From NCBI GenBank assembly GCA_965207735.1, contig OZ242296.1:4704001-4768000 (forward strand): a stretch of DNA of 64,000 bases. Direction: 5' to 3'. This DNA comes from Candidatus Versatilivorator sp. (GTDB lineage Bacteria; Acidobacteriota; Terriglobia; Versatilivoradales; Versatilivoraceae). This document shows, in pieces, positions 24,444-24,645 of the stretch (within the stretch, counting starts at the first letter, position 1; each line of letters opens with the position of its first letter). The position numbers were made by a program, and so were the translations under genes. The notes under the pieces are model-generated. The model ran no database searches, was not told where the DNA came from, and saw only the letters and a program-made list of their open reading frames with translations.

Positions 24444-24645
24444 GGATCATTGTGAAAGAATAAGCACCTGGCGAGACTCCGGCAGCTACGCCCCGTTTCA
24501 GCATTGGTGCCCCGTGCCCCAAGGCAAGTCTGGGTCCGAGCAGGTCATCATTCATTAGTGAGGCTTCCCGGGAAGTTCTCCTCAAGGCAAGAATCCGAAC
24601 GACCACGCCAACTCGGGCCGGAGCCCTCGCTCTCGAGGAGGCCAA
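24444..24645 (+). ncRNA. Candidate bridge/seek RNA in the IS110 left non-coding region
   Basis: About 200-nt region upstream of tnp; two stem-internal loop-stem units (CATTGGTG/CATTAGTG with G-U pairs; CTCCTC/GAGGAG), each with CAAGGCAAG in the loop; folding done by eye. Confidence 0.6.

Follow-up and report, generated by a model that had tools for sequence, protein, structure and literature searches.

In its putative bridge RNA, an IS110-family insertion sequence of Candidatus Versatilivorator sp. has one and the same 7-mer as left target guide and as left donor guide, from which insertion immediately after copies of the element's own right end is predicted. A probability of about 0.8 is assigned to this reading. 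The element lies in a window of 64,000 nucleotides, the window being the whole stretch of DNA that was analysed. Bridge recombinases are being engineered as programmable genome editors; the premise of this work is that separate loops serve target and donor and that a target is lost once insertion has occurred. The lineage described here would be a natural counter-example to that premise, in which target and donor share their left half. The noncoding region ahead of the transposase gene carries the sequence and covariation signature of a bridge RNA. A preliminary description of the window had proposed a bridge-RNA-type noncoding region with the element's own right-end sequence at both guide positions, and this proposal is supported by the covariation of the guides with the flanks.

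The element, its ends and its transposase

Judged by its protein and its layout, the element is an IS110-family insertion sequence of the bridge-recombinase kind. Its parts are the following.

24394–26067, + strand: IS110-family insertion sequence, 1674 bp; one of 10 genomic copies that are 97–100% identical
24394–24443, + strand: left end; 5 variable nt, then a hairpin, an 8-mer and a subterminal inverted repeat
24402–24422, + strand: GC-rich left-end hairpin
24423–24430, + strand: left-end 8-mer ATCATTCG, directly behind the GC-rich hairpin
24435–24443, + strand: left subterminal inverted repeat TGAAACAAC
24650–26044, + strand: DEDD transposase, a bridge recombinase homologue of 464 aa; sole long ORF of the element
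26053–26067, + strand: right end; its subterminal inverted repeat and the left donor site overlap
26053–26061, + strand: right subterminal inverted repeat GTTGTTTCA
26061–26067, + strand: putative left donor site (LD) AGGCAAG with the AG core, overlapping GTTGTTTCA

In Pfam, the transposase matches PF01548 (DEDD_Tnp_IS110; E=9.2e-22, residues 29–174) and PF02371 (Transposase_20; E=2.4e-12, residues 308–385). IS621 was not found by a single-sequence phmmer search of PDB chains with the transposase, and a profile search was needed. A profile built from the protein and 19 homologues matches the IS621 transposase (8wt6) over both domains at E=1.3e-21 and the ISCro4 bridge recombinase at E=9.6e-21. 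Residues D32, E80, D117 and D120 are invariant among the 20 transposase homologues and align in the profile with the IS621 motifs giD, iEatG and KTDtvD, and a serine of the transposase aligns, at an approximate position, near the ESGSS stretch of IS621. The noncoding left end measures 256 nt from the left boundary to the ATG, and 23 nt separate the stop codon from the right boundary. Long left ends, short right ends and short subterminal inverted repeats (STIRs) are named as traits of the IS110 group in the accessible text of PMC11208160. With its putative RNA region upstream of the transposase gene, the element fits the IS110 group rather than the IS1111 group.

A search of the genome, a single 5.26-Mb contig, yielded the 10 copies of the element and no further homologue of their transposase. 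GTTTCA-RRCRAG stands immediately left of all 10 copies. Boundary models in which the element starts inside the LE-like region, or carries a 14-mer at its left end, were tried and rejected, because the right flanks part right after ...CAAG in 6 of the 10 copies, because the right-end 7-mer adjoins a covarying inverted repeat, and because right-end 7-mers are conserved while loop-1 7-mers are diverse. The terminus of the element is CAGGCAAG at 26060–26067.

The GAAAC/GTTTC subterminal repeats (24435–24443 and 26053–26061) extend by 2–3 covarying bases. At the further STIR positions, at least two of five are complementary in 29 of 34 lineages, as opposed to about 37% in mismatched pairs. Together with the hairpin, the STIRs would let the RE-LE junction fold into a mirror of the donor loop.

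Fold of the RNA and assignment of the guides

The predicted fold consists of an outer helix that closes two modules, each with an enclosed hairpin region.

about 24477–24623, + strand: bridge-RNA-like fold, inside the 24444–24645 of the preliminary description
24477–24483/24617–24623, + strand: P1, closing helix
24490–24493/24532–24535, + strand: P2, module 1, encloses P3
about 24506–24509/24517–24519, + strand: P3 hairpin
24536–24540/24612–24616, + strand: P4, module 2, encloses P6 and P7
24557–24562/24578–24582, + strand: P6
24563–24567/24572–24576, + strand: P7 hairpin

This comparative fold was obtained with RNAalifold and pair counting from 64 sequences. Pairing is kept in 97.2% of the cells, compensatory change is seen in 18 of the 25 pairs, and none of 500 shuffles reaches any of five measures. 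Both guides are unpaired in it, in two multi-helix loops and 3' of the inner hairpins. The preliminary description had put the repeated 9-mer into two internal loops, each time on the 5' side. That the 9-mers are single-stranded is borne out, but their place is 3' of the inner hairpins.

The two stems drawn in the same description fare differently from the loops. For CATTGGTG/CATTAGTG, the 64 homologues contain no compensatory change, two of the eight pairs are disrupted (one in 27 and the other in 22 of the sequences), and 257 of 500 shuffles reach its covariation score. Because the two modules are paralogous, these strings are read as direct repeats and not as the strands of a stem. The pairing of CTCCTC with GAGGAG is kept in 71.9% of the cells over 16 homologues and is conserved in close relatives only; the CTCCTC strand pairs instead with AGTGAG, in a helix with compensatory changes (P6). 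The suggestion that this second stem sequesters the ribosome-binding site of the transposase gene therefore lacks comparative support, since the CTCCTC strand is occupied by P6. The alternative CTCCTC fold may form within the mRNA.

Single-sequence minimum-free-energy (MFE) folds of 24444–24649 and 24395–24649 are no stabler than shuffles (z +0.59 and -0.28). Their structures match neither the stems of the preliminary description nor the comparative fold and were set aside. A scan of 23000–27500 against Rfam 15, which may lack a bridge RNA model, gave no match at E up to 1. No sigma-70-like promoter is predicted in the noncoding region or in the natural RE-LE junction of locus L034.

The segments that bear on recognition are listed below.

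24520–24528, + strand: 9-mer 1, unpaired between P3 and the 3' strand of P2
24522–24528, + strand: putative left target guide AGGCAAG (loop 1), the last 7 nt of 9-mer 1
24583–24591, + strand: 9-mer 2, unpaired, immediately 3' of P6
24585–24591, + strand: putative left donor guide AGGCAAG (loop 2), the last 7 nt of 9-mer 2
24547–24554, + strand: ATCATTCA, 5' strand of the donor loop; oriented like the 8-mer at 24423–24430
24380–24393, + strand: putative left target (LT) TTGTTTCAGGCGAG, a right-end-like motif in the tail of the interrupted mini-element

The doubling of CAAGGCAAG was described correctly: the 64-kb window holds exactly two exact occurrences, which are the two 9-mers of the list, and both match the right end. 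With up to one mismatch, 14 matches are found in the window against 16.7 expected, and motifs like CAAGGCAAG are therefore not generally enriched. The right-end-like string TTCAGGCGAG at 24384–24393 does adjoin the left boundary of the element, and the other flank strings cited at the time, TTCAGGTAG (22711), CTCAAACAAG (42246) and TTCATGGAG (17619), are all present in the window. The strings TTCAGGTAG and CTCAAACAAG immediately precede the LE-like starts of other elements, at 22720 and 42256. The last 7 nt of the left target, AGGCGAG, differ by one base from the loop-1 guide, which makes the left flank of copy W (GGCGAG) an imperfect match to the guide.

Within the genome, loops 1 and 2 vary between G and A independently of each other. 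Loop 1, loop 2 and the right end all read GGCAAG in copies W and c2–c4. In c5 and c6, loop 1 reads GGCAAG, and both loop 2 and the right end read GACAAG; in c7–c10, loop 1 reads GACAAG, and both loop 2 and the right end read GGCAAG. Loop 2 agrees with the right end in 10 of 10 copies. A GACAAG left flank is present in three of the four copies c7–c10, the sole copies with GACAAG in loop 1. The coexistence of the guide combinations GG/GG, GG/GA and GA/GG in one genome amounts to a ready-made covariation experiment.

The same relationships were followed in 130 related loci, which were taken from genome and metagenome collections. A profile of the noncoding region gave 86 matches, and the 85 that carried both guide segments entered the flank tests. 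Of the 73 loci with enough sequence, 69 repeat the loop-2 7-mer without mismatch at the right end, each time after GTTTC or GTCTC; at L045 and L060, loop 2 and right end disagree. The counterpart of the loop-1 7-mer lies between -110 and -60, that is, 60–110 nt upstream of the RNA and directly left of the left end. Among 77 loci, 48 have an exact copy in this interval and 13 a copy with one mismatch, and the remaining 16 have none so placed; guides of foreign lineages, which serve as the null, match the interval in 8 of 2341 trials. The 85 noncoding regions contain 39 distinct loop-1 7-mers versus 17 distinct loop-2 7-mers, and a mutual-information scan puts guide identity at exactly these columns of the two loops. 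All guide 7-mers and all right ends terminate in AG, as do 120 of 128 left flanks of mini-elements. Because loop 2 tracks the right end and loop 1 tracks the left flank in the homologues, 24522–24528 is assigned as the putative left target guide (LTG) and 24585–24591 as the putative left donor guide (LDG).

In 85% of 41 lineages, the same base follows the AG of loop 1 (24529) and opens the left end (24394), with a mutual information (MI) of 0.51. It looks as if the left target guide extends one base into the product junction LT-AG-RD.

A further segment appears to take part in recognition of the donor. Of 53 lineages, 19 have an 8-mer in the 5' strand of the donor loop that is identical to the left-end 8-mer, and 30 have one that differs from it by a single mismatch, whereas mismatched lineage pairs agree exactly in 3 of 2581. 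The covarying versions differ by lineage and include ATCGTTCA, ATCCTTCA, ATTTTTCA, ATGATTCA, CCTATCA and others (loci L031–L145). This 8-mer may be a third guide, which would read the bottom strand of the donor across the left-end hairpin. A corresponding search for a right target guide set the 8-mer of the 5' strand of loop 1 against a 60-nt stretch of right flank, in both senses; over 65 locus/guide pairs, the matches were distributed as in the null. A mutual-information scan of the RNA columns against RT and RD showed nothing convincing except the base after the loop-1 AG. The homologue alignment revealed no top-strand RTG or RDG, and a canonical RDG, i.e. the reverse complement of AG plus the start of the left end, was not found by eye. 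With no right target guide detected, target recognition as seen here comprises 5 nt plus the AG core.

Guide identity among relatives and the comparison with IS621

Identity of the two guides is rare among the relatives. The 48 distinct guide pairs comprise one identical pair, six that differ at one position and 41 that differ at two or more of the seven positions. In the lineage of the window and its near relatives, the guides are identical or one G/A apart. To judge from these pairs, self-targeting is lineage-specific and different guides are the family norm. Right-end-like targeting nevertheless appears to recur in the clade: 24 of 61 loci, or 15 of 49 contexts when only distinct ones are counted, have a left flank of TTTC plus the 7-mer, and relatives lie directly behind another full copy at L034, L061/L065, L062 and L073/L074.

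In other relatives (L047–L055, L056 and L057), the target is unrelated to the right end. The elements at L047–L055 target GTGGTCAG repeats and end in AGACAAG, and L057 targets CCGTAAG and ends in AGGTCAG. The flank and end of L047–L055 mark this lineage as what appears to be a clean natural retargeting of loop 1 alone. It is an 80%-identical relative of the window's element with the loop-1 guide AGGTCAG, inserted into tandem 8-nt GTGRTCAG repeats. One mini-element of the window's genome sits after GTGGTCAGTGGTCAG.

For IS621, a variable target loop and a conserved donor loop are described in the accessible text of Durrant et al. 2024 (PMC11208160). The present element resembles IS621 in its long left end, with a structured and here predicted RNA region ahead of the DEDD/Tnp recombinase gene, and in having two loops, the first of which is variable and would serve the target, the second conserved and for the donor. 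In both systems, LTG and LDG read as the top strand and include the shared 2-nt core, which is AG here and CT in IS621. The left guides comprise 5 nt plus the core here, compared with 7 plus the core in IS621. Further departures from IS621 are the position of these guides 3' of the inner hairpins, the failure to detect a top-strand RTG or RDG, and the equality of LTG and LDG. In place of the RDG of IS621, the same-sense 8-mer of the donor loop matches the left end 21–33 nt in, behind the hairpin. Such a layout, with short left guides 3' of hairpins and a donor guide that acts across a DNA hairpin, could widen the design space of bridge recombinases and could explain half-site off-targets. According to the accessible text of Hiraizumi et al. 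2024 (PMC11208158), strand exchange in IS621 is blocked when handshake bases pair with the cognate DNA. The equality of LT and LD raises the question of how handshake pairing avoids such a block here.

Full-text literature searches, together with the article passages and abstracts consulted, yielded no description of a natural bridge RNA in which LTG equals LDG. The wider proposal holds that two programmable specificities have collapsed into one (LTG = LDG), that site-regenerating arrays which include about 220 miniatures grow rightwards, and that the guide layout departs from that of IS621 and includes a third guide. Belief and doubt in this combination are evenly balanced.

Mini-elements, arrays and their origin

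The genome contains 233 right-end-like motifs (among them 119 GACAAG, 86 GGCAAG and 13 GGTAAG). The insertion sequence follows 10 of them, and the LE-like start of a mini-element follows at least 105. The mini-elements measure 181–183 bp or 60–68 bp and have no transposase. Left-end hairpin, 8-mer, GAAAC/GTTTC inverted repeats and right-end motif are all present in them, and the units end in GTTGTTTCAGRCAAG; a unit profile gives 325 matches, 86 of them complete. With both ends of the parent and many copies, the units have the make-up of MITE-like non-autonomous derivatives. Three further features of the window belong to this context.

22720–22877, + strand: mini-element body with LE-like start, without transposase; unit profile match at 22726–22884
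22878–24361 (approximate), - strand: insertion sequence of DDE type (PF01609), unrelated, within the mini-element's T-rich tail
42256–42872, + strand: second LE/RE-bounded non-autonomous element of about 617 bp; starts after CTCAAACAAG and ends in GGTTGTTTCAGACAAG

The mini-element at 22720 is itself preceded by the right-end-like GTGTTTCAGGTAG (22707–22719), and its tail, 24362–24393, supplies the landing site of the full element. The resemblance of insertion flanks to AGGCAAG, which the preliminary description had noticed in the window, holds across the genome. Of 128 mini-element starts, 78 come directly after an exact AGGCAAG or AGACAAG, 61 of these in the context of a right end and 17 outside it; 20 further starts have a one-mismatch flank and 30 have other sequences. 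The background frequency of AGGCAAG plus AGACAAG is 1.4e-4 per position. Head-to-tail runs hold up to seven right-end motifs, the arrays mix 60-bp units, 182-bp units and the full element, and copies c3, c4 and c9 are flanked by units on both sides.

The DDE element sits just before the right-end motif of the mini-element and is also present left of c2 and c5, and its 64-nt end is 100% identical in well over 20 genomic places. This DDE insertion sequence seems to use the same mini-elements as landing sites. The interior of the 617-bp element differs from that of the mini-elements, and this element may be a larger non-autonomous relative or a composite.

For the self-targeting element, the following course of events is proposed. 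The RNA would be produced and loaded by the transposase. In the excised circle, loop 2 would pair with the right end, and its 5'-side segment would pair with the 8-mer behind the left-end hairpin. Strand exchange at AG would then place the incoming element to the right of the resident one. The site would be regenerated, because LD = LT makes the new right junction LD-AG-RT equal to the old target LT-AG-RT, and the arrays would thereby grow rightwards. The mini-elements would be moved in trans. That a landing pad is recreated at each insertion, and that this explains the stacking, was already the core of the preliminary description, and both guide covariation and genome-wide flanks speak for it. 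If true, the arrays would be a self-made safe harbour, whose landing site is regenerated at every insertion.

The proposal offers a concrete mechanism for the tandem IS110 arrays that were reported recently. In the expanded IS110 loci presented in the accessible text of one preprint (10.64898/2026.08.14.744561), noncoding units and whole modules likewise stand head-to-tail, with boundaries that match the left donor, and their growth is credited to one-sided (half-match) donor recombination. The present case differs from those loci, as that text describes them, in two respects: the target guide equals the donor guide, so that the left half and the core would be regenerated per insertion, and the mini-elements occur genome-wide and not just beside the transposase gene. 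Another point of comparison is ISPpu9 with MITEPpu9. The accessible sections of Pares-Guillen et al. 2025 (PMC12288879) describe an AG-flanked IS110-family element and a MITE partner with similar boxes, often located directly downstream of ISPpu9, and propose mobilisation in trans. What sets ISPpu9 apart in the same sections is that REP sequences are its target and that an sRNA gene lies in its MITE, and no identity of target and donor guides is described for it. Measured against that system, the present genome holds about 220 mini-elements and arrays with up to seven right-end motifs.

Arrays and tandems of insertion sequences might also arise by donor-only recombination, in which a half-match to LD alone suffices, or by local duplication, the identity of loop 1 then being incidental. 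This explanation is considered unlikely. It draws on tandem noncoding repeat units (n=468) and tandem IS110 modules (n=437) that keep LD-only boundary matches (accessible text of 10.64898/2026.08.14.744561) and on donor-arm recognition that is enough for excision and many off-target insertions (accessible text of 10.64898/2026.08.31.748434). Guides that are one base apart occur in 18 cases; five of these have a left flank that fits loop 2, and some insertions may for this reason be donor-loop driven through half-matches, which is a plausible share of the events. The flank fits loop 1 in 12 of these cases, however, and neither loop in one. Donor-only recombination is also at odds with the loop-1 7-mers, which track left flanks over 39 guides, including the lineages L047–L055, L056 and L057, and with the 17 mini-elements that follow the 7-mer in chromosomal contexts without a nearby right end. 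As for local duplication, two or three of 18 adjacent unit pairs are 93–97% identical, but, on average, neighbouring units are no closer in sequence than units at different loci (0.853 versus 0.837; Mann-Whitney p=0.09; 18 versus 3637 pairs). Because of this similarity, separate insertions appear to fit the stacking better, and local tandem duplication is not favoured as the general origin of the arrays.

A smaller probability still is given to the idea that the 60-bp and 182-bp units are REP-like host repeats that are merely targeted, with a secondary resemblance to the ends. Insertion of IS110-family elements into REP sequences is reported, e.g., for ISPpu9 (accessible text of PMC12288879), and the units carry a GC-rich hairpin and a 120-nt interior unrelated to the insertion sequence. 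Yet they share both ends of the element in the same order and orientation, including the exact right-end motif, and the shortest of them contain little beyond LE plus RE. Moreover, units at distant loci reach 98–100% identity (3 of 3655 unit pairs are at least 98% identical), and full-length relatives also land behind full-length copies. Scarcely credible is the notion that the repeated 9-mer has no guide role and merely reflects two duplicated modules of one RNA or DNA element. The loops are indeed paralogous, both with ...CAYU, an inner hairpin, a C-rich strand, an A and the 7-mer, and the chance of some repeated 9-mer in 206 nt is about 0.07 by our own arithmetic. The covariation of guides and flanks already contradicts this notion, since changes in one 7-mer are independent of those in the other, and dozens of lineages show each of them in step with a different DNA flank. 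Self-targeting through identical left guides thus remains the preferred reading.

The use of a mobile-element end as an insertion site has a reported precedent. The IS1111-group elements IS4321 and IS5075 reportedly insert into the inverted repeats found in transposons of the Tn21 family, a finding said to go back to Partridge and Hall in 2003. They are said to share with the present element both this kind of site and the possession of subterminal inverted repeats. Unlike here, their guide RNA reportedly lies downstream of the transposase gene, and their target is the end of a foreign transposon.

Three repeat patterns were noted in passing. The last five bases of the right end are repeated (..CAAG followed directly by RCAAG) at 14 of the 233 motifs, where about 0.5 would be expected by chance. 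One example lies right of copy c2 (G000:C1:3825076), and the resulting CAAGRCAAG is the RNA 9-mer in full length. Such repeats may have arisen by misregistered exchange or slippage, or may be a footprint. The window also contains two tandem repeats unrelated to the element, one of 72 nt in at least about 10 copies (4058–5005) and one of 62 nt in 3 copies (48782–48967).
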